A model generated the notes under the pieces. That model saw only the letters and a program-made list of their open reading frames with translations, did no database searches and was not told where the DNA came from. DNA of 64,000 bases from a virus: positions 29,285-93,284 of the IMG/VR virus record IMGVR_UViG_3300025133_000052. One strand, 5' to 3'. This document shows positions 257 to 56,150 of the stretch, in pieces (positions within the stretch are counted from its first letter, which is position 1; every line of letters begins with the position of its first letter). Made by a program: the position numbers and the translations under genes.

Positions 257-3034
257 CTACCAAAGGGCATTAATTATTTGATTGACTGGTCCGAATATAC
301 CTGTTATCTTATATGTTTTACCGTTATATATTATAACAATACCCTCAGTTGGTACTATATTTTTGAATCCTCCGGCCTGTTGAACCTTTTGTAAGTTATC
401 TTTAACTTTCTTTAATTTACTTAAATCCCCACCTTTTCTGACAGCTGATATTGATGACGCTATTTTTTTTCTAATGTTTTGTACAGACTTTGCTGGATTG
501 GCTGCTAGTAGGTTTTCTGCATTTTTTAAAATATCTGCTCCTAATTCAAACATAAGTGTTTCGAATGGTAACATATTCTTTTTAACTTGAGCGGTTACTT
601 TTATTTTATCTTCTTTTTTGATCTTATCTAACAGGTCTTTGTCTGAAATATTTGTACCATTTAATCTAAAAGATTTATCCCCAAAAGCCCATCGCTTAAC
701 CAATCCCATTTTGATTGTGTTATCGATACCTTTAAATTTATTATCAATATAGTTTTCCCACCACGCTTGATGATATTCGGCTAATGTTGATGTATCTTTT
801 AGATTAAATTGTTTTTGTAATTTGTTTAGTTTTGATAGATATATCGATTTCCTCGCTGCAAAATCAAGATGTGGTTTCATCTTTATAATTTGTGGTGGAA
901 TTATTTTGAATGTTTTTTGTATGTTTTGATTTACTTGAGTTATCATACCAGTCAACATTCTCCCACTATCAGGAACTGCCCCGATTGGAGTAGCCGTCTT
1001 TAAATCATATTCTATAGCTCCATGAAATTGTAATCGGGCTACATCATAACTAATTATATTTTCTGATGCTGGGTAGATTATTTCTAAATTCATAAATGCA
1101 CTACCTCCTTTAAAGATCTTTTCTTTTTGAGCATCTGATAATGATGATACTGCTTTTTCGAGATCTTGCATAGAATACACGAAGGCTTTTTCGATATCAC
1201 CTCTACCAGCAAATTTAGATTTCATTTGTTTGATATCCATGGGCTTCTTAATGGTGGATTTATTACGTGCTGCTTTTAACTTACCATCCTTCCACGTAAC
1301 CATTAAATTTTGACCATCCGTTTTTTCGCTTGCAGCTTCATCTACATCCAATCTTCCCTGTAATCCTAAATCAATTAGATTTTTAAAATCTCCGAAAGTC
1401 ATGCCCTTATCATCAAATGGATGGCTCATATGCCCGTATGCTCCTCCCTCAGTAATTAATCCTTCCTTAATACCTTCTTGTTTTGCAAAAGGGTTATTAC
1501 CTTGACCGTAAGAAACAAAAAATAATCTTTGCTTGCCTACTTTTTTAGAAACAACCTTCCCCTCTCTTCCCGATTTCTCAAGTTCTTTAGTTGCATTATC
1601 ATGTTTTAAATAAAAATTTCTTTTTTGCTTCATAAGTGAAGCTTTTTTACTTTTCTTAGGTTTTTTCTTTTTTTTAGCTTCGTCGAATATATTTGATTTA
1701 GGTAGTACTCTCATTCTCATAGCAGATTTGCCATTGATTAATAGATCTCCTTTTTCATTCCAACCTATTGTCTTTACAACCACTTTTTTATTTTTAAACT
1801 TTCCCATTAAAACAGTGTCACCAATATTAACTGGGATTGTTATATCTTCCATTATTCCAGACCACCATTCTTTAGTTAAGACCTGTTCGTTTACTTTTGT
1901 GTCTGGTAGTTCAACTTCAGTATCTTTTTTACGTTGCTTATCAACAAGTTTCGTAACTTTTTTTAATTCTCTATCTAGCTTATTAGGTTCTTTTTTACTT
2001 GTTACGGCAGATGATTCTGCTCCCATGAAACTAACAAATTCGTATCCTAACCTTAGAGCTACTTGAGATATACGCTTAACATATTTTTTCCAGGCTCGAG
2101 TACCTTTAATATCGTCACGATTGATCGGGGTAGTAACTCCTGCTTGACCTGCAGGAAAATATGTTACTGAGTGTACTTCTCTATCTGATATAGAGTCGAA
2201 TTCGACAGCACCATCTAGTATATAGTCAACAACATCCCATCCCATTTGTTTTGCGTAAAAATCACCAGTTTTCGAGTACCCCTTGAATGTAGTAAATTGC
2301 AGGGCGGGCCCGTCATCAACTAATTGTTTTGCTGGGGATCCAGTGTTACTACTTTCATTTAAAATATTAGGTATGTCTATGGTAGATATAAAGGATTGCA
2401 TTATCTCATTGATAGCTAATAACTTATCAGTTATCAACTTATAATTCTTAGTGTGACCGAATATACCACTAAAGAGCTTCTTTCGTGTCTTATCGTCAAT
2501 CCCTTGATCTCCTAGTGCCTTCCTGATTTTAGTACCACTCATTTCACCGTAACCTGGTACTTTGAGAGACTTGTGCTTTGCAGTATATACGTACGCTCCT
2601 TCCCTGTACCCAACTTCTACTGGATCTCCTTTCTTCCATTTTTTAAAATGCTTACCACCTGATAATCTATCTGCGTCTTTTTTACCTAACATAAATACAG
2701 CTGCAGTTGTTTCAGGATCAAATTTAGAGAGTAACTCCTGTGCCTTGTAAGGACTGTTTACTTTAATAACATTTTTAATCCCGTGAGATTTAATTATTTT
2801 TGCTTTTTCTTGATATGAAAACGGAGATTTAGGCATTTCAACTTTATCTGATGTTGCTACCCATACTTCATCAAATCCTAATTTTTTTAATTCATCGTAA
2901 GTTTGTGCGTGGTGCTTACCCATAGGTTGGAACCTACCCGGGTAAATACCAATTACCTTTTTGATACCGTTTTCTTTCTTAACAGTACCTTCTGTAACTA
3001 TTTGCTTTACTATCCAATCTCCTATAGTGTTCAT
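257..3034 (-). CDS. Multidomain protein: N-terminal cytidylyltransferase-like (HIGH-class) nucleotidyltransferase, small modules, C-terminal ATP-dependent ligase-like domain
   Basis: GRFQPMGKHH and MSGTKIR motifs; ligase motifs EKTDGQN (I), EGIV (IV), YKIT (V); (I/V/L)xE linkers between domains. Confidence 0.65.
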   Translation of the reverse strand: MNTIGDWIVKQIVTEGTVKKENGIKKVIGIYPGRFQPMGKHHAQTYDELKKLGFDEVWVATSDKVEMPKSPFSYQEKAKIIKSHGIKNVIKVNSPYKAQELLSKFDPETTAAVFMLGKKDADRLSGGKHFKKWKKGDPVEVGYREGAYVYTAKHKSLKVPGYGEMSGTKIRKALGDQGIDDKTRKKLFSGIFGHTKNYKLITDKLLAINEIMQSFISTIDIPNILNESSNTGSPAKQLVDDGPALQFTTFKGYSKTGDFYAKQMGWDVVDYILDGAVEFDSISDREVHSVTYFPAGQAGVTTPINRDDIKGTRAWKKYVKRISQVALRLGYEFVSFMGAESSAVTSKKEPNKLDRELKKVTKLVDKQRKKDTEVELPDTKVNEQVLTKEWWSGIMEDITIPVNIGDTVLMGKFKNKKVVVKTIGWNEKGDLLINGKSAMRMRVLPKSNIFDEAKKKKKPKKSKKASLMKQKRNFYLKHDNATKELEKSGREGKVVSKKVGKQRLFFVSYGQGNNPFAKQEGIKEGLITEGGAYGHMSHPFDDKGMTFGDFKNLIDLGLQGRLDVDEAASEKTDGQNLMVTWKDGKLKAARNKSTIKKPMDIKQMKSKFAGRGDIEKAFVYSMQDLEKAVSSLSDAQKEKIFKGGSAFMNLEIIYPASENIISYDVARLQFHGAIEYDLKTATPIGAVPDSGRMLTGMITQVNQNIQKTFKIIPPQIIKMKPHLDFAARKSIYLSKLNKLQKQFNLKDTSTLAEYHQAWWENYIDNKFKGIDNTIKMGLVKRWAFGDKSFRLNGTNISDKDLLDKIKKEDKIKVTAQVKKNMLPFETLMFELGADILKNAENLLAANPAKSVQNIRKKIASSISAVRKGGDLSKLKKVKDNLQKVQQAGGFKNIVPTEGIVIIYNGKTYKITGIFGPVNQIINALW

Positions 3035-32533: not shown

Positions 32534-33052
32534 CTATTTAATACCTTTTTTCTTATCTATAGCCTTCATTAATTGAGAATAATCTCTTGTTAAGGCATTC
32601 GCAACATCATCAGTTACCCCTGCAGGATTCATTCCCTTAGGTACCATATCCTGTACTGTCGGTTGAGGTGGTTGCATATCACCGTATCCTAACATACTAG
32701 CTAAATCCCCAGTATTAAGCGCGCTACCACCCATCGTTGGATACTCTTCCTGTTGAGCTGGCTTTGGTTGACTATACTCCCTTGCAGTTTCATTCAATAT
32801 TCCGTTAATCATAGGATTAGATGAATATTCAACTTCAGGTTCACTGGCTTGTACTACACTAGAACCATTTCCTAGCGATGCACGTACCTCTTCAGTTAAA
32901 CTCAATTCCCTGGTTTTAGGTCGTTTTTTAGGTAGCTTATTCACAGGCTTAACATTACCGTTAATCACATTTTGAATTTCAATCCTTACTGCTCGCTGGA
33001 CCTCTTCTCTAATAACTTTTCTTAATGAAGTAAAAAAACTTTTCGCTTTCAT
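32534..33052 (-). CDS. Hypothetical protein with an N-terminal IREE helix
   Basis: LRKVIREEVQRAVR; 172 aa ORF. Confidence 0.65.
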   Translation of the reverse strand: MKAKSFFTSLRKVIREEVQRAVRIEIQNVINGNVKPVNKLPKKRPKTRELSLTEEVRASLGNGSSVVQASEPEVEYSSNPMINGILNETAREYSQPKPAQQEEYPTMGGSALNTGDLASMLGYGDMQPPQPTVQDMVPKGMNPAGVTDDVANALTRDYSQLMKAIDKKKGIK

Positions 33053-42683: not shown

Positions 42684-42703
42684 TAATTTTTATTTTAAGT
42701 TAG

Positions 42704-43032
42704 TGGAGGTGCCGGGTATCGATCCCGGGTCCGTGACAATTTCCTTAAGAAACATTTTTACAAGCATAGGATAAGTTTTTCTAAACTTCCAAAAATTGAT
42801 ATGTTTTTTAAACTGTAAGGTTGTTTATAGAATCAATATCATTACCTCTTCACCATCTACTTCGTTTAACATCTAATTAACCTGCAAGTATACTCAGTTA
42901 AATGATGTGCAAGTGCTAAACCTCTTAGGCCGCCATTGCAAGGGTAGTTTCGCCAGTTAGCGATACTTGATGTAGGTCATCACCCAGCCTGTGCTTCAGA
43001 CATCCGTTACACGTCAAGTCCAAGTCACCCCC
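42704..43032 (-). ncRNA. ssrA: tmRNA, tag (A)GETTLAMAA*
   Basis: 5' GGGGGTG pairs with 3' CACCTCC-A including the G3-U alanine determinant; T-arm CCGGG-ATCGATA-CCCGG; TAACT followed by GGC GAA ACT ACC CTT GCA ATG GCG GCC TAA. Confidence 0.93.
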
Positions 43033-43037
43033 GTTTA

Positions 43038-43072
43038 TATAAATATACGAAATTATATTCAGGTATCCAACT
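43038..43072 (-). promoter_or_regulatory. tmRNA promoter (host-type TTG-N20-TAnnTTT overlapping TATTTATA)
   Basis: AGTTGG...TTCGTATATTTATA immediately 5' of the tmRNA. Confidence 0.7.
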
Positions 43073-43836
43073 TATTCGGTTAGAATTTCACAACCATTAT
43101 CAGTTATCACAACTGTATGCTCCCATGCTGTACCTGGACTATTATCATCTGTCACTATACTCCACTTATCCGGTAGTATTAGTAGATTATCGTTTGTTAC
43201 CAAACCTGGTTCAATCGCAAGTACATTACCTGGCTTGAGTTGGTAGTCATTATATGGGTTTCCAGGTACCTTCCAGTACGGTATTACAGGTGGTTCGTGA
43301 AGATTTTTACCTACCCCATGGCCTTGGAATTGTTTCATTACCTTAAATCCGTGTTTGTTAGCATATGACTGTTGTATATCTCCTAATTCACCTATCGTTA
43401 CACTCGGACCGGTATTATTTAATGTATGTATGAGACAGTCATATGAGACCTTGTTAAGTAATTTTTTACTTTCTCCTACATCTCCTACTTCGACATTGAC
43501 GGCTGAGTCAGCATGCATGCCCTTATATTTTACCGGGCAATCTATACCCACTAACATACCCTCCTTGATAATAGTATCGTCAGGTATACCGTGCACTATA
43601 ACATGATCGATTGATATACAGGAATGTTTAGGGTATCCTCTATAACCGAGTGAAGCTGATTTTGATTTATGTTGTTTAAGAAAATTTGCTGCAAGGCTGT
43701 CTAGTTCATTAGTTGTTATTCCACTAGTACAATTCTCTACCATTAACTGTAATACATCCTTTACGATTTTTCCAGCTGATCTGATCCGTTTAAGTTGATT
43801 TGGATTATATATTTTAGGTTGCTTAAATATTACCAT
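43072..43836 (-). CDS. map: Methionine aminopeptidase type I
   Basis: HGIP, D...DSA, GHGVG..LHE.P, AIEP and EHTV metal-ligand motifs. Confidence 0.93.
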   Translation of the reverse strand: MVIFKQPKIYNPNQLKRIRSAGKIVKDVLQLMVENCTSGITTNELDSLAANFLKQHKSKSASLGYRGYPKHSCISIDHVIVHGIPDDTIIKEGMLVGIDCPVKYKGMHADSAVNVEVGDVGESKKLLNKVSYDCLIHTLNNTGPSVTIGELGDIQQSYANKHGFKVMKQFQGHGVGKNLHEPPVIPYWKVPGNPYNDYQLKPGNVLAIEPGLVTNDNLLILPDKWSIVTDDNSPGTAWEHTVVITDNGCEILTE

Positions 43837-44762: not shown

Positions 44763-45047
44763 TTATTGGTCGGTTCCAGCTGAGACCGGTGTATCTTTCC
44801 TAGGAGCCTTATCGATATCTTTAGCTACCTTCTCAATTATCTTCAAGGCAGCGTCGAGATACTTTATTGTTTTTATAGAAGTATCTGGATCTGGGAACGA
44901 TCTTTCGAAATAACTGTCACCTATCCACCCTGTCATATCTAGTAATTGCTCTATCCTATTATATATCTGAGATGTATTATCAGGTTTGAGTTCGATTTCA
45001 TTTACTATCTCAGCTCGTATTATAGATCTTAAAGTTTTCTTTTTCAT
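44763..45047 (-). CDS. Putative head-cargo protein (leader ...IIRAEIVNE)
   Basis: Leader motif. Confidence 0.6.
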   Translation of the reverse strand: MKKKTLRSIIRAEIVNEIELKPDNTSQIYNRIEQLLDMTGWIGDSYFERSFPDPDTSIKTIKYLDAALKIIEKVAKDIDKAPRKDTPVSAGTDQ

Positions 45048-45048
45048 G

Positions 45049-45300
45049 TTACCATCTCCTGTGACTTTGATAATGATTATATCCTTTATGATTGTAGTGA
45101 AATTTATTGTATTTACTATAGTAGTAGCTACGTATACTGTAATTAGTGAGTGGGGTTATATAAGTAGTTGTATGATATCCGTAACCAGTCGTGTACACCC
45201 TTGGCATAGTATGATAAGGTACTGTATTATTAAAATGGATACTACCACAGCTGCAACAACAAATCCAAATACATATAATAATTTCTTTAATATATCCCAT
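45049..45300 (-). CDS. Small putative lipoprotein with a Tyr/His-rich tail
   Basis: Hydrophobic N-terminus ending CSC; low-complexity tail. Confidence 0.45.
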   Translation of the reverse strand: MGYIKEIIICIWICCCSCGSIHFNNTVPYHTMPRVYTTGYGYHTTTYITPLTNYSIRSYYYSKYNKFHYNHKGYNHYQSHRRW

Positions 45301-45308
45301 ATTCCCAA

Positions 45309-45629
45309 CTACGTCTCTTCTTGATCTTTTAATCGATTATATATTTGTTTAGCTTTTCTGTAAACATCAGATCCCTTCTTCGCCTTTAATGCTGTTCTTA
45401 ACTTAATAGCATTACCGGTCTTAGGATTATCTATTCGCTGGTCGCCGTATTTTTTTCTAATATCTGTTTCTTCAACCTCTCCTACATCTTCATCATCATC
45501 CTCGAACCTGGGTATAACTCCTGACGCGTAAGTATTACGGTAGGGTGCACCCACCATAGCTCGTTGCGCTTCAGTTATTACACTATGAATTTCCTCTCTA
45601 ACTATTTGTATTAGTTTAGACTTTTTCAT
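45309..45629 (-). CDS. Putative head-cargo protein (leader ...IVREEIHSVITE)
   Basis: Leader motif; basic C-terminal module. Confidence 0.65.
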   Translation of the reverse strand: MKKSKLIQIVREEIHSVITEAQRAMVGAPYRNTYASGVIPRFEDDDEDVGEVEETDIRKKYGDQRIDNPKTGNAIKLRTALKAKKGSDVYRKAKQIYNRLKDQEET

Positions 45630-45943
45630 TTGTTATTTAACATATCACTAATAACGTTTCTGATAACAGATCTTAATTCAGTTATTTTAGGTTCTTCTTT
45701 AACCTCGTGTTTATGATGTGACTCCTCTATTACCTTTAACTTACTTGTCGGTATATTTTCGTATACCTTACCGTTACCGAAATCAACATCAACATAGTTA
45801 ACATCTCCGGCTTCATTAAGTGTGTGACTAATCACCGTACCTTTAATACCGTGCTCCTCTATCTCTACGTGTTTAGGACAATCATGGATAACATCTCCAG
45901 TACCGTAAGTAGGTATAAATGGATCTTTTTCTTCTTTCTTCAT
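45626..45943 (-). CDS. Hypothetical SH3-like protein with a C-terminal IR-helix
   Basis: ORF; KITE-LRSVIRNVI tail. Confidence 0.6.
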   Translation of the reverse strand: MKKEEKDPFIPTYGTGDVIHDCPKHVEIEEHGIKGTVISHTLNEAGDVNYVDVDFGNGKVYENIPTSKLKVIEESHHKHEVKEEPKITELRSVIRNVISDMLNNK

Positions 45944-45956
45944 AATAACGTTTAAC

Positions 45957-46250
45957 TTATTTTTTAACAGGAAACTTTACTAACTTTTTATCGTAGTCAG
46001 ATGATCCCAATTTCTTTAATTGATAATTATAAAAATAATATATAGCCTTTTTATGTCTTACATCAACCTTGGGGCTACGCATTAATTGTTTATAAGTTTT
46101 TTTTAGTTTACCCCTATCTTTAATATCCTTAAATATAGGATCATATATTTTAGTAGTAAATAGAGCCCATGTCTTAACTTCAGGATCATTATCTAAATAT
46201 TCCTGTACTATCTCCCGTATACACTCTTTAAGTATTTGATCTTTATTCAT
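45957..46250 (-). CDS. Putative head-cargo protein (leader ...CIREIVQE)
   Basis: Leader motif. Confidence 0.6.
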   Translation of the reverse strand: MNKDQILKECIREIVQEYLDNDPEVKTWALFTTKIYDPIFKDIKDRGKLKKTYKQLMRSPKVDVRHKKAIYYFYNYQLKKLGSSDYDKKLVKFPVKK

Positions 46251-46379
46251 TTACCTACCTTGACCTCTATATCGTTTTTTATAGTTCTTTGAATGTTTAT
46301 TACGTGATGTTTTTGTTTTTGCGTGAATACCTTTTCTTTTTTTTCTAAGCTTGACCTCCTTAGTTAATATACGCTTCAT
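46251..46379 (-). CDS. 42-aa highly basic peptide ending YRGQGR
   Basis: MKRILTKEVKLRKKRKGIHAKTKTSRNKHSKNYKKRYRGQGR; translated by hand; TATTTATA at 46426-46433. Confidence 0.7.
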   Translation of the reverse strand: MKRILTKEVKLRKKRKGIHAKTKTSRNKHSKNYKKRYRGQGR

Positions 46380-46490
46380 TTAACACCTCTTCATATTTTA
46401 ATTCCATGAACAATAAATTTACAATTATAAATAGTGTAAAATAAAAGAAAAGTTAGTTTGAGCTCATTAAGATAGTTGAGTAACTATATA

Positions 46491-48263
46491 CTATTTCTTA
46501 GGTAATGTTTTCTCTACAGCGTCTTCGTGATCCTCTAGTTCACCCTCTCCACCGACAGCGTCCATGTCAATTAATTCATCGTCATCTGTACCCATGGTTG
46601 AGGGCTTAACTGCGTACGCTGGTGATACTGAACCGGCTCCTTGATATAAGCCATGATTTTTTGCAAATTCAATGTCTACGCCCTGGTTATTGATATCAAT
46701 GTCACTGTACAGGTCTTTAAATTTTGTAGGTAATGAACCCTCTTCAACGTCGTTGAGTGTCGGTCTCGAGGCCTTAGCTTCTATAGTTTTAATCTTAATG
46801 GTGTTTGATACTCTCCCTGCGGCAATCTCCTTAGCTATAGCTCTGTACACACCATCCTCTCCTGTACCTTCCTTTAACTTAACATCAATCTCACTCCCGT
46901 CAGTTAATGTTACCTTAAAGCGTTCATTACTTACATCCCAAGTAGCTTCGTTAACTGATTCTTTAAGCTTTTTTAATTGACCACGTAAAAGATTCATATC
47001 CATTCTTTTATATTTGCGGTAAAATGGTGAACTATCTGTTTGAGGTTTACCATCAACAGTAAGTAAAAATCCAGGTTTCCCTCCTCCAATTTCTATAGTA
47101 TTATTTCCCTTTTTAAAAAGTGTATCTGATACTTTAGTAAATCCAAAATGTTTTAGTTTATTTGCAGTTGGGTTACCTTCATTAACTGATTCTAACATTT
47201 GGTCATTATCGAATTTTACAGTTGGTGATGGAGAGAACATATGAGTGTCTACTTTAGATTGTATTCCGTATACCTTCTTTAATAACGCTACTACCTTTTT
47301 TCCAGCACTTGCACTCTTCAAATGTAGGTATGTTACTTTATCATTAGGCTGTTTGATAATACCTTTAACGTACTGCTTTAATTCATCTTTTAATGATTCA
47401 GCTGAATCTCCCGCGATCTGTCCTCCGAGTGATGATTCATTCATTTCCATCCCCATACTAATCCACACTCTAATAATATCAGCGTAGTCTTTTGAAGTAA
47501 GACCGTTTCTCTCTCCCCAAGTAGTTTCGCTATTAAGATCATGCATTTGTTTTGCTACCTTATTAATATTACCTTCTTTAAAGCGAATAGTTGCTCTTTG
47601 TTTACCGGCATCCAGTAACCTAAATGTCTCTCCTTTAATGTCATGTGGATCTGTAGACCAACCAGCTGAATTGTTAACTCTAATATCAAAATGGGCTTGT
47701 CCGCTGCTCATGTAAACCGTCCAATCCTTTCCCTTTTGATATGTTTTACCTTTTTTGTATTTAATAGCTTCAGTAATTGATTCTAATTTATATTTCTTTT
47801 TGTTCATTGCAATGTCTATCGCGTTCAACTCCTCTCCATTATCAAGTAACACCTTATCACCTTTAATAGCTACCACCTTAGCTGTCTCCTTACCCTCTTT
47901 ACCGAAAGCGAATTGCTTTATGTAAGTGATCTTCGTACCTCTTTTAATTTTACCCTCACTGATCGATTCACTTATTGTGTGTCTCATCCCCCCGCCAGTC
48001 TTAACACCAGGGGCAGTACGTTTAAGTTTAGTACTAAGAGATTTATTAACGTGTTTAAGTAATGCATCCACTCCAGTATCGTTCATGTAGCTGGACATAT
48101 GAAGCTCATACCCTTTACCTTTCTTTTTGACCTTTTTAAGCGCCTTGGAATTAATACCTAGCCCGTCCTGTAATGACAGTTCAATCTGATATTTAACGTC
48201 TGTAGCATTTACCGCTTCAAGCACTACAGCTCTAATTGCCTTTTTTATTTCTGATATCTTCAT
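46491..48263 (-). CDS. Putative cargo polyprotein B (modules joined by ES(V/I)(N/T/S)E linkers)
   Basis: VVLEA, ESISEG, ESITEA, EMNES, ESVNEG, ESVNEA. Confidence 0.7.
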   Translation of the reverse strand: MKISEIKKAIRAVVLEAVNATDVKYQIELSLQDGLGINSKALKKVKKKGKGYELHMSSYMNDTGVDALLKHVNKSLSTKLKRTAPGVKTGGGMRHTISESISEGKIKRGTKITYIKQFAFGKEGKETAKVVAIKGDKVLLDNGEELNAIDIAMNKKKYKLESITEAIKYKKGKTYQKGKDWTVYMSSGQAHFDIRVNNSAGWSTDPHDIKGETFRLLDAGKQRATIRFKEGNINKVAKQMHDLNSETTWGERNGLTSKDYADIIRVWISMGMEMNESSLGGQIAGDSAESLKDELKQYVKGIIKQPNDKVTYLHLKSASAGKKVVALLKKVYGIQSKVDTHMFSPSPTVKFDNDQMLESVNEGNPTANKLKHFGFTKVSDTLFKKGNNTIEIGGGKPGFLLTVDGKPQTDSSPFYRKYKRMDMNLLRGQLKKLKESVNEATWDVSNERFKVTLTDGSEIDVKLKEGTGEDGVYRAIAKEIAAGRVSNTIKIKTIEAKASRPTLNDVEEGSLPTKFKDLYSDIDINNQGVDIEFAKNHGLYQGAGSVSPAYAVKPSTMGTDDDELIDMDAVGGEGELEDHEDAVEKTLPKK

Positions 48264-48280
48264 ATTCGTTTCTTAATTAT

Positions 48281-48607
48281 TTATTTTACTACCATATTTC
48301 GAAATAGCTTAGCTAACTCTAACTGGCTTTTAGGCTGTACCATGACCTGGGTAAAGTCTATCTTCCTGTACTTATCTACTATACCTTTAACTGTTCTTTT
48401 CGGTAACTTATATTTGTTAGCAAACCCTGTTAAGAATAGCTTTAAAATATCTAACCCTATATCGTGTCTATCACTCTTACTCAGCTCCTTACTCCACCTT
48501 ACTACCGGTATTCCTTTATGTTTACTTGTGTTTAAGTCTTGAACCTTTTCAATAGCCCTTCTTAAATTAAATAAAATCCAACCTAATTCTTGATTCTTTG
48601 CTGGCAT
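48281..48607 (-). CDS. Hypothetical basic protein
   Basis: ORF track. Confidence 0.6.
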   Translation of the reverse strand: MPAKNQELGWILFNLRRAIEKVQDLNTSKHKGIPVVRWSKELSKSDRHDIGLDILKLFLTGFANKYKLPKRTVKGIVDKYRKIDFTQVMVQPKSQLELAKLFRNMVVK

Positions 48608-48611
48608 ATTA

Positions 48612-48914
48612 TTACTTTTTCTTTATCGTAGTCCAAGCCTTTTGAAACATTGCTCCCATACCATCGTCTAACTTATCCATTGTTTTTAAAATGGCTCGCA
48701 TTGACTTTACTTGTCCTGGACTTGGTGTTATGCTGTGTAATATTTTACCTTGGGGCTTATCTTTATATGATGCTAGTTTACTTTCTAATTTATCTATATT
48801 ACGAATAGCTCCAGTTAATGACTTCTTAGCTAACACTAATGCTTTAGCAGTATCGATAAGATCTTTACCCGTCCATTGATCTCCTGCTTCGTTAATTAAT
48901 TTTCTTAATTTCAT
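48612..48914 (-). CDS. Putative head-cargo protein (leader MKLRKLINE)
   Basis: Leader motif. Confidence 0.65.
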   Translation of the reverse strand: MKLRKLINEAGDQWTGKDLIDTAKALVLAKKSLTGAIRNIDKLESKLASYKDKPQGKILHSITPSPGQVKSMRAILKTMDKLDDGMGAMFQKAWTTIKKK

Positions 48915-49537
48915 TACTTTACTTTTGTATATATTTCACTACCACGTACTTTAATAATCTCTAATCTAGTGTTTCTCGGAAAGATAAACTCAGCTTCACC
49001 ATCCCTGTACATATAAGGTAATGGAGCTTGTGTTGCTTTATTAAGAGCTCCGGTTAATATGAGTATACCACCCTTACCCTTGTTTGCAAAACTATCTGCT
49101 GTCGATCGATCCTTGGTTACTGACATAAAGGCTTTTTCAATAATTTTTTTAGATTGCAACGAGGTTATATACTGAAATAGATCCTTTCCTATACCCCTAA
49201 ATAACTTTGAACCTTTAAATTTTGGAGCTATCTCTATATATTGATCGATTAGGGATGCATTCGATGGTAGCTTACCGGTCCGTAAAGATTTATTCATCCT
49301 ACCATATCCAGTTGCTGTATATTTACGTACAGCTTTATTTATTTCTCGTGCCTTTTTTATTCCAAACTTTTTAACTATCGGTAGTAGTCTGCTGAGTTCA
49401 CGCTTATAACCAGTCTCTTTTCTCAATTCATCACTCGGTTCTTTTGGATTAAAAATTATCTTCTCTGTTTGATAAACTAGTTCATCTTCACCTGTTAAAT
49501 CATCAAGACCTTCTGGGATCAAATCTCTTAGTTTCAC
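48914..49537 (-). CDS. ADP-ribosyltransferase (VIP2/T4 Alt-like R-S-E type) with leader MKLRDLIPE
   Basis: YT..GY..MN..LR helix, LFRG, FMSVT, EAEFIFPR. Confidence 0.85.
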   Translation of the reverse strand: MKLRDLIPEGLDDLTGEDELVYQTEKIIFNPKEPSDELRKETGYKRELSRLLPIVKKFGIKKAREINKAVRKYTATGYGRMNKSLRTGKLPSNASLIDQYIEIAPKFKGSKLFRGIGKDLFQYITSLQSKKIIEKAFMSVTKDRSTADSFANKGKGGILILTGALNKATQAPLPYMYRDGEAEFIFPRNTRLEIIKVRGSEIYTKVK

Positions 49538-49773
49538 TATTTTTTATTCATCTTAGCAAGCTTAGCAAGTATTTCTTTCATTTGCCTACCACCAGCATAT
49601 CCTAGATTAATTTGACCAGATCTACCACCTATTTCTAAATGAATGTGTCCGTTACCATCTTTAACTATAAAAAGATTACCTACGTTGTCTTTAGTAGCCT
49701 CTTCATTAATAGTCTCTTTCTTATTGTAAAGGTTACGAAACCTCCAATCATATATACTAAATTTCTTACTCAT
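49537..49773 (-). CDS. Putative head-cargo protein (leader MSKKFSIYDW...INE)
   Basis: Leader motif. Confidence 0.6.
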   Translation of the reverse strand: MSKKFSIYDWRFRNLYNKKETINEEATKDNVGNLFIVKDGNGHIHLEIGGRSGQINLGYAGGRQMKEILAKLAKMNKK

Positions 49774-49786
49774 TGTTTTCCTTTTT

Positions 49787-52786
49787 TTATCTACCTACTT
49801 GGATAGATGACCTTAAACTTTGTAACACTTTTATAGCCTTAACTAATTCTTTTTTAACGTTAGAGCCACTAGCTCTCCGTCCTATTGCTCCTAACATGCT
49901 AATCATATCACCAACAGATGATGCATCTTTATCCACTTTCATCTTTGGAGAAGCCTCGTCAACAGGTTTAGCATCGTGAAATGCTTGATCTAATTGTGAG
50001 TCATCTTCGTTGATATCATGGGCATCCTTGAATGATATGATAGAAGGTTTAATATCTTTAGCCGTATCAATACGAATGTCTTCGTTAACAATAATGTTAG
50101 CTAATTCTTCTCTAATGATCTTAGCAATTTCTTCTTTAAGGTTATTCGTTGATTCACTTAAATCAATTGATTCCTTAAGTTTATATTTCTTTGGATCGTC
50201 TTTAATAGCTTTAGTAAAGTTAGCAATCATTTTAGGGATGTTATCATCAAAACCTATCATCTCTCCGTTAAGAGTTATCTTAGTTCCCATACCCCTAACT
50301 TTCTTAGCACCTATTTTTACTTCTGATTGTTTAAGATTATATCCATTAGCCTTTAATGCTGTTTGGACCGCATGCTTAAATTGAGAAGCAGCTTCATTAA
50401 TTGATTCATCAACCCCGTACTGTACCCAGAATGTGGCTTGACCTTTAACTGAATCTAATTTAGAGACAGGTAGCTTTAAGGATTTGATAGCCTTTTGCAT
50501 TAGTTTATGTTTCTTTGCTTGTTCAGGTGAACCTTTTTCAGACCCACTCGGTAAAGCAATAGTAGCTATTGTACCAATTGATTTAGGATACTTCCTAACA
50601 TCTAGAGGAGCTTTAGTTCCAAACATCTTTTGAAACTTCTTAATACCGGTCAGAACCTTTTTAGCATCTAATTGTTCTTCATTCATATTGTTTATTTTCT
50701 CTTTAATAATAGTACCCTCACTAAAAATGTAAATGTGTTCCTCTTTAGTTTCAGGATCAATTTTAATAACCTTACCGTTACTGTGAAGTTGTTCCATTTC
50801 ATCTTTAGAGAACGTTACTGTATCTTCTGTAACATTCATTAAACTATCTAATTCTTCGTTAATGATTTGGACAAGGAGAGCTCTCGAAAGTGTATTGCTG
50901 CGCGGCGATGATTCATTAACTGATTCATTACCAGTTGCTTTGGCATATGCTTCGACTTCCTTTGGCCAGCTGGTGCCTTCGTTAACTTCATTCTTTTTTG
51001 AACTAGCGTAAGCTCTTTGTAAAGCCTTCTTTCTAAGATCGTTATCAGTTATTCCTCTATCATCTAAATTAAAAGATGTCTCGCCATTGACGTATACTAT
51101 CTGCCCATGGGCCTTCTTCTTAATTGTAATATCAGCATCTTTCTTACGCAATAACTTATGCAAGTACTTTATTGTTTGAGAAGAACTTTCTGCTTCATTA
51201 ACTGATTCATTACCAGTTGCTTTGGCATATGCTTTGGCGTATTGTTTTGGAAAATCACCATTAATTGATTTTTTATATTCAGGTAAGTCTTTAATTGGAA
51301 CAGGAATCCACATAGCTTTATTATTGCTATTATCGTGCATGTTCATTAATGCATTACTACCTTTTATCTTTGCAACATATCCCGATCGTCCTGCCAAACT
51401 CTTGTTCTTGTGATTGGAAGGCCAGCGTATCTCAGTTCCAGGTTTAATTTTATTCTTAGCTTCATTAACTGATTCTTTAGTTAATTTGCCTTCCTTAATT
51501 TGAACTTTATTCTGCGTACGCAACTTTTTATCAAGGTCGTTAGAAGATATTATGTTTGGATTTTTATTAGGAAAATTGGGGTTTTTTATGTCAGTCCGAA
51601 TCCACTTTCCCCCAGCTACATTTTTAGCCCATGTTTGACCTGAGAAGTGTATTAGTGCTGCAAAGTCTGCTTTGTTTGCCATTCCACTTGTTGGTTTTTG
51701 TATTGGGTATTTTTTAAGATCTTTCCATATAGTTTGTGCGCGCGTCATAATAGTAGCTTCACTAACTGATTCTAATACTGGGTATTTCTTTTTAACTGAT
51801 TGTTGAAACTTCTTCCAGTTACTACCACTTATAAGATCAGAAGCATGTTGCATGAAGCTATCTAATGATGTCCATTTTTGATCTGCAAGTTCATGTTGTT
51901 TTGAAGTATAAGGTGCCATCATATCTAATAGATCAATTACAACATCGTGGGACATTTTCTTGATGGGCTTAGTTTTTAATATGCCTGCTTTCTTAGCTTG
52001 GTGCCAATCCATCTTCTTAGGAATACTATATTTCCAAATATCATTATCTTGATCGTGCTTGCTTCTCGCTGAATCACTAGCATTGAAGTTATTCTTTAAT
52101 TTACTAACATCTAAGTTAGGATCTGCTTTCTTTAATATGCTTTTAAGCTTACTAGTGTTATCAACCTTTCCATATTGTGTAACGTAAATATGATTGGCTG
52201 ATGAGTTAACTGGTGTCTTACCGTACCCTGCAGTCGTTTTAGCATATGCATCTATACCTTTAAGTTTGCTAACTACTTTACCAATTGCCTTTTCATACTC
52301 AATTTCTTTGCCTAGACCTAAGTTGTAATTTTCATTAACTGATTCATTTTTCTTTTTGCATTTTTGACATTTCTTATCTTTATGATTTGTCATTTGCATA
52401 CACTTACCACAATAATCTAATTTAAGACCTGCTTCGGTAATTGATTTATTCTTACGCATTGTTTTAACTAATTTCTCGATTTGTTTGTGTAAGGAATTAA
52501 CTAGTGTAGTTTGGCCTTTTCTTACAGCTACTGCTCTTTGCTTTAAAAGAGCTTTATATAGTTTCTCATCCTTTGAACCTTCAGTTATCTCTTCGGTAGT
52601 TAATTCAGTTTCCTTGAACTCTACATCCTTGCCCCTGAGCCTTACCATGTAACCGTAAGAACCGTCGCTATATCTCATCCCATCGGACGAGATAACTCCC
52701 TTCTTACCGTTGTACTTTTTAGCAGTGTGATCAGATATATCCTTAACCTTTACTTTGTCGAATTTTTTGAATTTAGCACTTGCCAT
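49787..52786 (-). CDS. Putative cargo polyprotein A (~1000 aa, more than 10 modules joined by ESVNE-type linkers)
   Basis: Likely start MASAK at 52786; EITEG, SITEA, ESVNEN, ESVSEA, ESVNEA x2, EVNEG, ESVNES, ESINEA, IVNED. Confidence 0.75.
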   Translation of the reverse strand: MASAKFKKFDKVKVKDISDHTAKKYNGKKGVISSDGMRYSDGSYGYMVRLRGKDVEFKETELTTEEITEGSKDEKLYKALLKQRAVAVRKGQTTLVNSLHKQIEKLVKTMRKNKSITEAGLKLDYCGKCMQMTNHKDKKCQKCKKKNESVNENYNLGLGKEIEYEKAIGKVVSKLKGIDAYAKTTAGYGKTPVNSSANHIYVTQYGKVDNTSKLKSILKKADPNLDVSKLKNNFNASDSARSKHDQDNDIWKYSIPKKMDWHQAKKAGILKTKPIKKMSHDVVIDLLDMMAPYTSKQHELADQKWTSLDSFMQHASDLISGSNWKKFQQSVKKKYPVLESVSEATIMTRAQTIWKDLKKYPIQKPTSGMANKADFAALIHFSGQTWAKNVAGGKWIRTDIKNPNFPNKNPNIISSNDLDKKLRTQNKVQIKEGKLTKESVNEAKNKIKPGTEIRWPSNHKNKSLAGRSGYVAKIKGSNALMNMHDNSNNKAMWIPVPIKDLPEYKKSINGDFPKQYAKAYAKATGNESVNEAESSSQTIKYLHKLLRKKDADITIKKKAHGQIVYVNGETSFNLDDRGITDNDLRKKALQRAYASSKKNEVNEGTSWPKEVEAYAKATGNESVNESSPRSNTLSRALLVQIINEELDSLMNVTEDTVTFSKDEMEQLHSNGKVIKIDPETKEEHIYIFSEGTIIKEKINNMNEEQLDAKKVLTGIKKFQKMFGTKAPLDVRKYPKSIGTIATIALPSGSEKGSPEQAKKHKLMQKAIKSLKLPVSKLDSVKGQATFWVQYGVDESINEAASQFKHAVQTALKANGYNLKQSEVKIGAKKVRGMGTKITLNGEMIGFDDNIPKMIANFTKAIKDDPKKYKLKESIDLSESTNNLKEEIAKIIREELANIIVNEDIRIDTAKDIKPSIISFKDAHDINEDDSQLDQAFHDAKPVDEASPKMKVDKDASSVGDMISMLGAIGRRASGSNVKKELVKAIKVLQSLRSSIQVGR

Positions 52787-52808
52787 ATTAATTATCTTTT
52801 TTATATAT

Positions 52809-53135
52809 CTAAAATGACTTTCGAGCGAATGCGATAAAGAAGTCTGTAATGTCTTCACTATCCCAACCTTCCTCTTCCAGATCAGCTGCCATACCTTGAC
52901 TACCGTTAATAAAGGCTTTCATGTTCTTCATGTTCACCAGACCCTGTCCTCTACGGAGGAGCTTGTGATCGTAATTAACTTCAGTTATAGGATCGTCTGT
53001 CACTTCGAGGTCATCTGCTTGTTCCTTTTGAATTGGCTCTTTTTGTGTAGTAAGTGGATTCCACTTCATCTTCTGAAGCTTCTCTGAAGGAAGCTGGCCT
53101 AGGAAGTGTTCGTTAATTAATTTTTTTAGTTTCAT
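52809..53135 (-). CDS. Putative head-cargo protein (leader MKLKKLINE)
   Basis: Leader; shares the LG.LPS.KL.KMKWNPL module with 54511..54777. Confidence 0.65.
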   Translation of the reverse strand: MKLKKLINEHFLGQLPSEKLQKMKWNPLTTQKEPIQKEQADDLEVTDDPITEVNYDHKLLRRGQGLVNMKNMKAFINGSQGMAADLEEEGWDSEDITDFFIAFARKSF

Positions 53136-53136
53136 A

Positions 53137-54312
53137 TTATTGTTTCTTTTGCCTTACTGTAGCTTTAAGTAATTTGTTTTCGAAGGGATTCGTGAATGAT
53201 TCTTCAATACTGTCAACATCAATTCTATATACATCGTCATCTCTACCAGAAGCTTCATCTGATACTGTTCCGTATACTGTTTGACCATCTACATTTTTAA
53301 ATTGTACTGTATCTCCTGGCTCTACTGTGACCTGTGAATCATCTTCATCGTATGAGTCAATAAAATAAGCTTCTTGATCATCATCATATGCGATATAATC
53401 CTCTGCGGAATCTCCTAGCCTAGTTGTAGATGCATAATCGTCTGGATTAATATCGAATTGATCGTCATCTCCGTACCAATCTTCATCGCTATCGGAATCG
53501 CTGTCAAGTTCTGACGCCACCCGTTGTATAGTGTCAATGACTTGCTCTTGTTCGTCCTGTGGCCACTCGCTCGTGTTGAACCATTTTTTAAAGTCATTTT
53601 CCAATTCTTGAGGGTCGATACCTTGATTGTTTATTAGGTCTTCGATATAGGGATCTACCTCCATACCGTGTGAGAATAAATCCCCTACGTGTTCGATGTG
53701 TTCGTAATGTTCTGGATCTCCGTTGTCACCATCATCTCCACTACTTACATCTCCGCTACTTGCAGTTGGTGGTACCCAATTCTTATCACCTGATTTAGTC
53801 CTTGCAAAAAGTTTTCCAAATTGCTTAGCATCATTCTCAGACCATCCACTGTTTTTCATATAATCGAATACATCATCAGCTGTATGAAGGTTCATCATTT
53901 CGTCAGCAAAGTCTTGAGCTGATGCATCGTCAGCATATACCGAATTGTTGTGTAGTAGCTCCAAATCTATTATAGCTTTTTGTGCACTGGTCGCGTACTC
54001 AAGATTATCTAGTTTAAAACCTTGAACATCTGTCTTGGATTCACCACCTGTTTCTTTTTCTGCTGAAGAAGTAAAATCTAAATCTTGACCTTTCTCCTTG
54101 TCAGTCGACCGGTCCTGTTGACCGCCTACATCCCCAGCTTTCATCTTCTCACCATCTACAGTAACTTCCGTATCAGGTGATACGTCATGCTTATCGGTAT
54201 AGGCATTGTAAGCTTCTTCGTCTTTAAACTCTAGTTCGTTAATTGTACCTGTGTTGCGAAAGCTCTCTACAATTGTGTGCCAGTTCTTTCTGATGTCATT
54301 AATGTTGTTCAT
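53137..54312 (-). CDS. Highly acidic protein, possible core/scaffold-type cargo
   Basis: Asp-rich; IVES, INEL and IEES linkers. Confidence 0.6.
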   Translation of the reverse strand: MNNINDIRKNWHTIVESFRNTGTINELEFKDEEAYNAYTDKHDVSPDTEVTVDGEKMKAGDVGGQQDRSTDKEKGQDLDFTSSAEKETGGESKTDVQGFKLDNLEYATSAQKAIIDLELLHNNSVYADDASAQDFADEMMNLHTADDVFDYMKNSGWSENDAKQFGKLFARTKSGDKNWVPPTASSGDVSSGDDGDNGDPEHYEHIEHVGDLFSHGMEVDPYIEDLINNQGIDPQELENDFKKWFNTSEWPQDEQEQVIDTIQRVASELDSDSDSDEDWYGDDDQFDINPDDYASTTRLGDSAEDYIAYDDDQEAYFIDSYDEDDSQVTVEPGDTVQFKNVDGQTVYGTVSDEASGRDDDVYRIDVDSIEESFTNPFENKLLKATVRQKKQ

Positions 54313-54488
54313 GTTGTTATGCTTTTTTTATTTTTGTCAATGTAAGACCACACAACACCAACGAGTGCCATAACTGATCCGTAAACCTCTTCAATGCCGT
54401 CACTGTCAATGTATCCTTTAGCTATCAACGCACCCCCAACAATTGTTAAAGCGTGTCTGATTAATCCAAATATTTGTTCTTGTTTCAT
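54309..54488 (-). CDS. Small two-TM holin-like protein (59 aa)
   Basis: MKQEQIFGLIRHALTIVGGALIAKG...GSVMALVGVVWSYIDK; translated by hand; ATGA overlap with the next gene. Confidence 0.65.
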   Translation of the reverse strand: MKQEQIFGLIRHALTIVGGALIAKGYIDSDGIEEVYGSVMALVGVVWSYIDKNKKSITT

Positions 54489-54510
54489 ATAGTAATCTTT
54501 TTCTCTTCTT

Positions 54511-54777
54511 TTAACCTTTTAACTTAGCGTCAATGGCCAGTGCTATTTTTTCCCTGAATGTAAATACCTCATCATCAGTCATCCTACGCAGTGCTTTTCT
54601 AAAGTTTGATATTACTCTATCGGCTAGATCGCCACCCTTATCTTCAGTAACAGGATCTGATTCCTTCAATGGATTCCATTTCATCTTCATAAGCTTATCA
54701 CTTGGAAGTTCTCCTAATGCATGTTCTTTAAGTAGATGTTTCTGTTGCCATTCTTTAATGTTAAATTTTTTAGTCAT
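54511..54777 (-). CDS. Putative head-cargo protein (leader MTKKFNIKEWQ...LKE)
   Basis: Leader motif. Confidence 0.65.
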   Translation of the reverse strand: MTKKFNIKEWQQKHLLKEHALGELPSDKLMKMKWNPLKESDPVTEDKGGDLADRVISNFRKALRRMTDDEVFTFREKIALAIDAKLKG

Positions 54778-55088
54778 ATTGTATCTTTTTACTCTATAGT
54801 GCTTTTCCTAATTTACTTGAATGGAACAATCTTTCTATTTTTTGGAATAATTTAATTTCTTTCTGAAATCCACCTTTACCTAGCTTCTGCTCTTCCCACT
54901 TCATACCTGCAGGAGTGTTTCTAACGGATTCGATATGAGCTGACATATCGGCAAGTTCATCTGATATACCATAGTATGCATCCTTAACATCCTCTAGACC
55001 TTCTAGGCCTAGTACCGTTCTTTCTTTTAATGCTTTATCTTGCCATTCTTTAATGTTAAATTTTTTAGTCATATTGTATCTTTTTACT
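54745..55088. repeat. 49-nt exact direct repeat (54745-54793 = 55040-55088) covering the translation-initiation region and first 11 codons
   Basis: ttgccattctttaatgttaaattttttagtcatattgtatctttttact occurs twice. Confidence 0.92.
54794..55072 (-). CDS. Putative head-cargo protein (leader MTKKFNIKEWQ...LKE)
   Basis: Leader motif. Confidence 0.65.
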   Translation of the reverse strand: MTKKFNIKEWQDKALKERTVLGLEGLEDVKDAYYGISDELADMSAHIESVRNTPAGMKWEEQKLGKGGFQKEIKLFQKIERLFHSSKLGKAL

Positions 55089-55089
55089 G

Positions 55090-56150
55090 TAATATAAAGA
55101 TAAGAACTTTACCGCAATTATCCAACTTTTTTACACTGTAAAATGTGTGCGAATATAAATATGTAAGGAGCTGCAAAAATAACAGATCTGAACAATATAA
55201 TAGTAATAAGCTAAACAGTGGTTGTTAGTTGGCCCGGTTTTTGTTTTTTGAGAATCCTTGCAGGTTTGGATTTCGGGGGAAATGTTTTGAAAAGGAAAAG
55301 GTGGATGTGTGTGTGTGGTGATGGGCGCAGCGTGTGTGGGTGTAAAGGTGGTGTGGAGGTGTTACACTTAGTGTATTATTTACAACCAGTAGCCTATAGG
55401 TAAAAAAACTAACATGGACATACACACCACACAGATTCACTTCTCACCCCCCGTTATTTTTCTGATGTAGCGTTTATTATAGTACTGTATTATATATAAA
55501 TTTTATATATCTGTTTTTATAATATATTATTTACAGTTTATATAATTTTTAATTAAAAATATTCAGTTTAACGTTAAAAAAATTATTTTATTATTTAATT
55601 GAATTCAAATACAGTTATATTATATATTATATTTAATTATTTATTTAAAATTATATACAGATTATATAATATCGATTATATTATTTATATTATAATATTC
55701 GAATCGATTTAATTATTATATTATTATCGAGTCGTTATATTATATGTGTGCACAGGGAGTGATTGATGTGTTATATATACGTTGCTGTACCGTATTATTA
55801 TTAATTGTTATTGTTGTTATTGTATTGTTTGTGATGCCCGCCATATTATTTTAAATTATATCTGTCGATTAGTTGTTTATCTGAATTATTCTTCGTATCT
55901 TTATATTATAAGGGGCGAGGTCTGGCCTGTCATATTACATTTTATTATATATGTTATTATTATATTAATTATATTGTGTTCGATATATACAGATATAGCA
56001 CAAGCTAGCTTATCAATATTGATATGATGCTAGCTTGCGCGGTGGGAAAAACAACAACTATATTCTGTTATATTATGTTTACTGAACGACCCCCTATGGA
56101 CGTGTGTTCTGTCCAATCTGCCGGGGGCTCACGATTCAGTTACATTATTA
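55090..56150. other. ~1 kb non-coding island (GT-rich tract, very AT-rich core, divergent promoters, hairpins)
   Basis: No credible CDS; leftward promoter 55095-55127; rightward promoter 55871-55903. Confidence 0.6.

Follow-up and report, generated by a model that had tools for sequence, protein, structure and literature searches.

The minus strand of IMG/VR virus record IMGVR_UViG_3300025133_000052 carries ten genes whose products start with one of three types of short N-terminal leader. The genes lie at 44763-55072 of the 64,000-nucleotide stretch analysed here (the window; bases 29285-93284 of the 93,284-base viral contig, CheckV completeness ~49%). The leaders are shared between genes, modular and conserved at the protein level. 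With a probability of roughly 0.72, they are capsid-targeting propeptides of the T4 type that are cut by a prohead protease, and the cluster would then be a set of recombination-shuffled head-internal proteins which are probably ejected. Coordinates are window positions unless marked 'genome', which refers to positions of the whole contig.

All N-termini quoted in the initial annotation, which had taken them for candidate capsid-targeting sequences, were found on the genes to which it had assigned them (Table 1). The class 1 leaders are 9 aa long with the consensus M-K-L-x-[KD]-L-I-[NP]-E. The class 2 leaders, of 17-24 aa, start with M-[TS]-K-K-F-[NS]-I-x-[ED]-W and end in LKE or INE, and the class 3 leaders, of 16-20 aa, are described by M-K/N-x(3-4)-[IL]-x(3)-I-R-x-x-[IV] with the end [IV]-x-E. 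A signal-peptide reading was rejected, since the leaders are charged and amphipathic, not hydrophobic.

Table 1. Positions of the leaders and of related open reading frames (ORFs); pI, isoelectric point; D3, D5 and D1/D4, repeat families.
Feature	Position	Strand	Gene and remarks
Class 1 leader MKLRKLINE	48888..48914	-	100-aa gene 48612-48914; predicted mature protein basic, pI 9.9; repeat D5
Class 1 leader MKLRDLIPE	49511..49537	-	207-aa ADP-ribosyltransferase gene 48914-49537
Class 1 leader MKLKKLINE	53109..53135	-	108-aa gene 52809-53135; body homologous to 54511-54777 (class 2 leader)
Class 1 leader MKLSKLINE, fourth copy	gene at genome 18963-19487, outside window		174-aa gene directly downstream of protease gene
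Class 2 leader MTKKFNIKEWQ...LLKE, 18 aa	54724..54777	-	88-aa gene 54511-54777; repeat D3
Class 2 leader MTKKFNIKEWQ...LKE, 17 aa	55022..55072	-	92-aa gene 54794-55072
Class 2 leader MSKKFSIYDW...INE, 24 aa	49702..49773	-	78-aa gene 49537-49773; fits class 2 search pattern
Class 3 leader MKKKTLRSIIRAEIVNE	44997..45047	-	94-aa gene 44763-45047
Class 3 leader MKKSKLIQIVREEIHSVITE	45570..45629	-	106-aa gene 45309-45629
Class 3 leader MNKDQILKECIREIVQE	46200..46250	-	97-aa gene 45957-46250
Class 3 leader MKISEIKKAIRAVVLE	48216..48263	-	590-aa gene 46491-48263; repeats D1/D4
Long ORF, 1023 aa from GTG, probable start ATG 52786	49787..52858	-	N-terminal leader of the three classes absent
Class-3-like N-terminus ..RKVIREEVQ..	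32534..33052	-	172-aa gene, baseplate region; no family match

At least six of the ten residues at positions 2-11 were identical in five ORF pairs, whereas 500 shuffles gave 0.1-0.3 such pairs on average and never more than 3. The proteome contained seven instances of the class 3 core [IVL]R[EA][EIV][IV], and six of these fell in the N-terminal 14 residues (P=8e-6, for a pattern chosen post hoc). The class 1 and class 2 leaders were also recovered as DNA repeats by a repeat finder. The DNA identity was limited to the leader, extending from the ATG to the Glu codon in class 1 and from -16 to +33 in the class 2 pair. The two members of this pair, 54794-55072 and 54511-54777, have in common only residues 1-22 and the 16 nt upstream.

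The genes behind the leaders had been described as unrelated, and in an all-against-all BLASTP comparison this held for all the bodies except those of 52809-53135 (class 1) and 54511-54777 (class 2). These two bodies were 52% identical (E=2e-12), with the likeness starting right after the leader Glu, and, judged by the sequences, the pair is a leader swap on one cargo. The proposal of an interchangeable leader set was thereby borne out, as the same cargo stands under class 1 or class 2 here and orthologues change leader class between phages. A homologue of 52809-53135 that includes the class 1 leader was found in contig L022; the homologous-protein search with 52809-53135 returned the query itself only.

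A degenerate DNA pattern for each leader class was scanned over IMG/VR. The class 1 pattern gave 16 matches, about 12 of which were true ORF starts with unrelated cargo; in one contig (L017), seven adjacent genes start with M-[KR]-[LF]-x-[KN]-[FY]-[LI]-[NK]-E. With the class 2 pattern, all 16 matches were ORF starts of the form M[ST]KKF[NS]IH[DE]W[QR]..., with L-x-E at the end of the leader and diverse sequence beyond it. The codons of the class 2 relatives varied synonymously and their upstream DNA differed, which places the conservation at the protein level. In 596 Gb of prokaryote genomes, the same pattern was matched once, by chance, in a methylmalonyl-CoA-mutase-like gene. The class 3 pattern was matched in at least 120 contigs and in 141 or more ORFs with a minimum length of 50 aa, frequently with two to four in one contig, and among the matches listed [LIVM]xE stood within 13 residues after the core in 125 of the 141 ORFs.

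The distribution bears on the explanation that the N-termini are conserved for another cause, either as a translation-initiation or mRNA element or as a generic oligomerisation or regulatory helix, capsid targeting having no part. We consider this quite unlikely. It would account for the 16 nt shared before the ATG of the class 2 pair and for the richness of the leaders in AAA codons, which are typical of efficient starts in AT-rich genomes, and it draws on the packaging reading being deduced from sequence. However, protein-level conservation, synonymous changes and differing upstream DNA are contrary to it, and the leaders end in a protease motif, are virus-specific and are tightly linked to head-module genes in relatives.

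The contig, in which the minus strand holds nearly all genes (GC content ~34%), is that of a distant T4-like myovirus. Its part outside the window contains a head and tail module of T4 type with a split large terminase, portal, prohead protease, scaffold-like protein, major capsid protein and tail sheath. The prohead protease (genome 19502-20167) belongs to Peptidase_S77 (PF03420, 97 bits vs a cut-off of 27), is 34% identical to T4 gp21 and retains the LGELxHP and SSRGLGS motifs as LGELDHP and GISSRGLGS. The major capsid protein is of the Gp23 family (260 bits), and the model begins at residue 74. A candidate propeptide site, LIDE63|A, is retained as [IV]SE|A in immuto and Mel-JY01. The nearest cultured relatives are the Flavobacterium immuto phages and Microcystis phage Mel-JY01, with capsid-protein identities of 55% and 61%, respectively. 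The numbers of [LIV]xE[AGS] sites exceeded the expected ones in the scaffold (7 vs 0.8), the capsid protein (5 vs 1.4) and the protease (3 vs 0.6), and the protease would cleave the capsid protein and the scaffold at [LI]-x-E sites. A nucleotide search of the cluster region against phages gave no match.

In relatives, genes with leaders of all three classes flank the protease gene in the head module, and one and the same orthologue can bear different leader classes in different phages. In four marine contigs (L026, L028, L029, L032), a class 2 gene lies directly upstream of the gp21 homologue, which is the position of T4 genes 67 and 68. Among the at least 120 class 3 loci listed, 38 also held T4-like core genes of this phage and 14 held the protease; in 11 of the 14, a class 3 gene followed downstream of the protease gene, mostly 12-250 nt past the protease match, and preceded the scaffold gene. 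The protease gene of L007, with a product 78% identical to the present one, is followed by class-1-like and class 3 genes. Between the portal and scaffold genes of L015 there are a 630-aa protein with a class 3 leader and ESVNE-type linkers, the protease gene and three class-1-type genes. Two L015 proteins have modules in common with the cargo of the present cluster: the 45309-45629 cargo resembles part of the 630-aa polyprotein, which is encoded upstream of the protease gene, and one module of the 590-aa protein 46491-48263 is homologous to an L015 head-module protein. In immuto, a 73-aa gene one gene upstream of the protease gene has a class 3 leader, and a 75-aa gene directly after the protease gene has a class 2 leader. 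The 174-aa post-protease protein has a class 1 leader in the present phage and a class-3-type leader in its Mel-JY01 homologue. Among 1.8 billion representatives, the closest homologues of the ADP-ribosyltransferase (48914-49537) had class-1-like leaders, a class 3 leader or different short leaders ending in [LIV]xE at their N-termini.

The same linkage makes it highly improbable that the leaders serve to be recognised by a modifying enzyme, in the fashion of ribosomally synthesised and post-translationally modified peptides, as the leader-linked genes were consistently those of the prohead protease and the head and not of a maturase. A radical-SAM tag reading was likewise rejected, PF04055 having no match in the ~49% complete contig.

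Among the cargo, 48914-49537 matched the ADP-ribosyltransferase family PF03496 above the cut-off. Its AlphaFold 2 model, built with an 18-sequence alignment, had a predicted local distance difference test score (pLDDT) of 90.7, and residues 1-15, including the leader, were of low confidence and outside the fold. Foldseek matched the model to C3-like, SpvB and Vis proteins with a probability of 1.0. R114 and E183 were invariant among the 18 homologues and E181 was nearly so (E181-x-E183); the protein has the Arg, the Ser-x-Ser/Thr and the Glu-x-Glu of the R-S-E (C3-like) fold. According to the model, the cargo is a C3-like ADP-ribosyltransferase and would correspond in function to T4 Alt. The head module of Mel-JY01 includes an ADP-ribosyltransferase gene, behind a 10-aa leader ending in ILE. 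The protein search with the ADP-ribosyltransferase against phages gave no match, and a related-locus search from the ADP-ribosyltransferase family with P0012 found nothing. After predicted maturation, most cargo proteins would be small and basic, as are T4 internal proteins, and a few would be acidic. Scanned against PHROG and Pfam, the cluster gave matches for the ADP-ribosyltransferase and for a holin-family protein and otherwise only weak ones below the threshold, the other cargo having no family match.

The cargo also bears on the possibility that the leader-bearing proteins are parts of the prohead core (scaffold accessories) which are targeted and cleaved, then degraded or expelled in maturation, and are not injected effectors. 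T4 gp67, gp68 and gp22 are degraded or expelled during maturation, and in relatives the gp67/gp68 positions next to the protease gene are taken by conserved genes with the same leaders. Several products of the cluster are acidic, as scaffold proteins are, and the long proteins have many internal sites. On the other hand, an ADP-ribosyltransferase with an intact R-S-ExE site makes sense only if it is delivered, most of the mature cargo shares the basic character of the T4 internal proteins, and the cargo is hypervariable between relatives, unlike structural scaffolds. Altogether, the core-component explanation is considered unlikely.

The capsid targeting sequence (CTS) of T4 internal proteins, processed by gp21, was reportedly described by Mullaney and Black in 1996. 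In T4, the first ten residues of IPIII are enough for packaging and are removed by gp21, and the internal proteins are diverse with the CTS as their only common part (PMC9026906, PMC3012670). The T4 leaders taken from NC_000866 were MKTYQEFIAE|A (ipII/ipIII), MELITELFDE|D (alt), MLKEQLIAE|A (gp22), MAKINELLRE|S (gp24) and, for ipI, 19 aa ending in ITE|A. The initial annotation had likened the Glu end of all the leaders to that of the T4 CTS; a wider likeness was confined to class 1, where length, the i, i+3, i+4 hydrophobic spacing and the I-x-E end agree. The agreement of class 1 with MKTYQEFIAE is one of pattern only (hydrophobics at i, i+3 and i+4, then x-E), nine residues being too few to show homology.

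The present system resembles T4 IPI, IPII, IPIII and Alt in its protease family and gp23/gp22-type head module, in N-terminal leaders of 9-24 aa ending in [LI]-x-E, and in the presence of the same leader on unrelated, mostly small basic proteins and on an ADP-ribosyltransferase. The cargo genes are, as in T4, clustered apart from the head genes and variable between relatives. In contrast to T4, classes 2 and 3 are longer (16-24 aa) and have no similar T4 leader, at least three leader families in one genome replace each other on orthologous cargo, and about 11 leader genes were found in half a genome, compared with 4-5 in T4. The lineage is also far from the T-even phages and is known here from sequence alone. 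In the giant phages phiKZ, 201phi2-1 and SPN3US, a gp21-related prohead protease cuts after Glu (PMC5694885, PMC10052503). Many head-internal proteins are processed there, and paralogues have identical N-termini, but the motifs are A/S/G-x-E and the propeptides are often longer than 100 residues (PMC5694885, PMC10052503), whereas the present system has [LIV]-x-E and T4-sized leaders.

In the proposed mechanism, a short amphipathic N-terminal helix would dock the protein on the scaffolding core during prohead assembly. The gp21-family protease would then cut after the Glu of the terminal [LIV]-x-E and free the mature protein inside the head, from which it would probably exit with the DNA at infection. 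As the tag would be a self-contained module, recombination at it would exchange the cargo, and such exchange would make the cluster a changing arsenal comparable to the ip and alt loci of T4. The idea that the leaders are address tags routing fused domains into the head gained support from the gp21-family protease, the gp23-family capsid protein, the [LIV]xE-rich scaffold, the head-module linkage and the ADP-ribosyltransferase cargo; packaging itself, like core binding, cleavage at the Glu, presence in the virion and ejection, is what we infer from these.

Several observations weigh against the capsid-targeting interpretation. Many genes of the genome have a bare [LIV]xE at positions 7-24, namely 29 of 99 other genes vs 11 of 16 in the cluster (P=0.003). 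At this frequency the Glu ending is weak evidence by itself, and it is the sharing of the leaders that carries the argument. No tested T4 CTS resembles class 2 or class 3 in sequence. A class-3-like N-terminus occurs on a gene among the baseplate genes (32534-33052), which is either a further member or a counter-example. Scans for late promoters (TATAAATA-like), sigma-70 promoters and terminators tied nothing in the cluster to late expression. The Peptidase_S77 and Gp23 searches of the leader-bearing contigs, which are 7-64% complete, were mostly negative, and the protease and gp23 were not found even in a 147-kb, 64% complete contig with one class 1 match; since these contigs are fragments, the negatives say nothing on absence. 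Finally, the literature search found no virion proteome and no N-terminal sequencing, expression or genetic data for the phage or any relative, Mel-JY01 and the immuto phages included.

Within the capsid-targeting interpretation, the three classes may not be redundant, in that each would have a partner or docking site of its own in the prohead core, for example the scaffold N-terminal helix in the case of class 3. Copy number, location or fate (expelled, retained or ejected) would then be set separately by each class, so that the classes would be several independent addresses. This is a tentative and somewhat unlikely proposal. It fits with the facts that relatives keep more than one class per genome, that each class has its own conserved head-module carrier, and that in environmental T4-like phages the IREE class by itself marks well over 100 unrelated proteins.

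For T4, both the mechanism and its application to the packaging of foreign proteins are textbook knowledge. The carrying of foreign proteins into T4 heads by CTS-type tags is established (PMC9026906), so the suggestion that the leaders would be useful for engineering is not new. New are the leader families FNIxxWQ (class 2) and IREE (class 3), which are unlike any T4 CTS, the coexistence and interchange of classes 2 and 3 with a T4-like class on the same cargo, and the finding that the IREE type is abundant among environmental T4-like phages; no mention of the class 3 (IREE) motif was found in the literature search. In these exchanges leader and cargo behave as independent modules, with the break falling precisely at the predicted protease site. 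Provided that the tags function as they do in T4, a handful of short profiles would suffice to detect the head-carried, probably injected proteins of uncultured T4-like phages. The proteins detected, most of them without a recognisable family, would then be candidates for host take-over and counter-defence.

The two long proteins of the cluster contain internal linkers. The long ORF 49787-52858 has 14 [LIV]xE[AGS] sites, where 2.7 would be expected, and includes ESVNE linkers, which are repeated, as well as a class-3-like helix in its interior, ..KIIREELANIIVNE. The 590-aa protein 46491-48263 also has internal linkers, of the form ES[VI][NST]E. The linker DNA is itself a dispersed repeat (families D1 and D4, 30-32 nt) present at six places across 46491-48263 and 49787-52858 on the minus strand, and a 44-nt near-exact repeat, 50909-50952 / 51191-51234, brackets one module of the long ORF.

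Two further minus-strand proteins have elements similar to the leaders. The 105-aa protein 45626-45943 has no N-terminal leader, and its C-terminus is a class-3-like helix, ..ITELRSVIRNVISDM.., located directly before the class 3 leader of the next gene; the helix may have been left behind by recombination or may serve in targeting from the C-terminus. The 925-aa protein 257-3034 has a cytidylyltransferase-like domain (PF01467), begins with MNTIGDWIVKQIVTE|G and is preceded by a TATAAATA-like element 12 nt before the ATG. It may be a further leader-bearing, head-packaged enzyme.

Other minus-strand products of the cluster were a 59-aa Phage_holin_10 protein (PF23987, 65 bits) without a leader, encoded mid-cluster at 54309-54488, and an extremely basic 42-aa peptide (46251-46379, pI 11.9, 19 Lys+Arg). 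The latter was 62% identical over 37 residues to an ORF of Flavobacterium phage immuto (L050:11019-11156) and could either condense DNA as a peptide of the head or be a product resembling ribosomal proteins. Upstream of the cluster, about 1.1 kb (55073-56150) has no convincing gene, contains locally G-rich stretches and gave no Rfam match; it may hold the cluster promoter.

In the head module outside the window, the large terminase is split into two ORFs (276 and 393 aa) around a 243-aa ORF (genome 23999-26721; L002:8999-11721, minus strand), and in the close relative L005 the terminase gene is single and intact (525 aa). The split ORFs fit the suggestion of the initial annotation of a split intein with an endonuclease. 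A homologue of the ribosomal protein bS21 (PF01165) is encoded between the post-protease gene and the scaffold gene (genome 18681-18947; L001:18681-18947, minus strand), and a bS21 homologue occupies the same place in Mel-JY01 and L015.

Just downstream of the leader cluster, a phage-encoded transfer-messenger RNA (tmRNA) was identified at 42701-43032 on the minus strand (RF00023, 64.5 bits), with the tag peptide GETTLAMAA according to ARAGORN; it was the only match in the Rfam scan. Between the tmRNA and the cluster lies a gene for an M24 metallopeptidase (43072-43836, minus strand; PF00557, 134 bits), a family that includes the methionine aminopeptidases.

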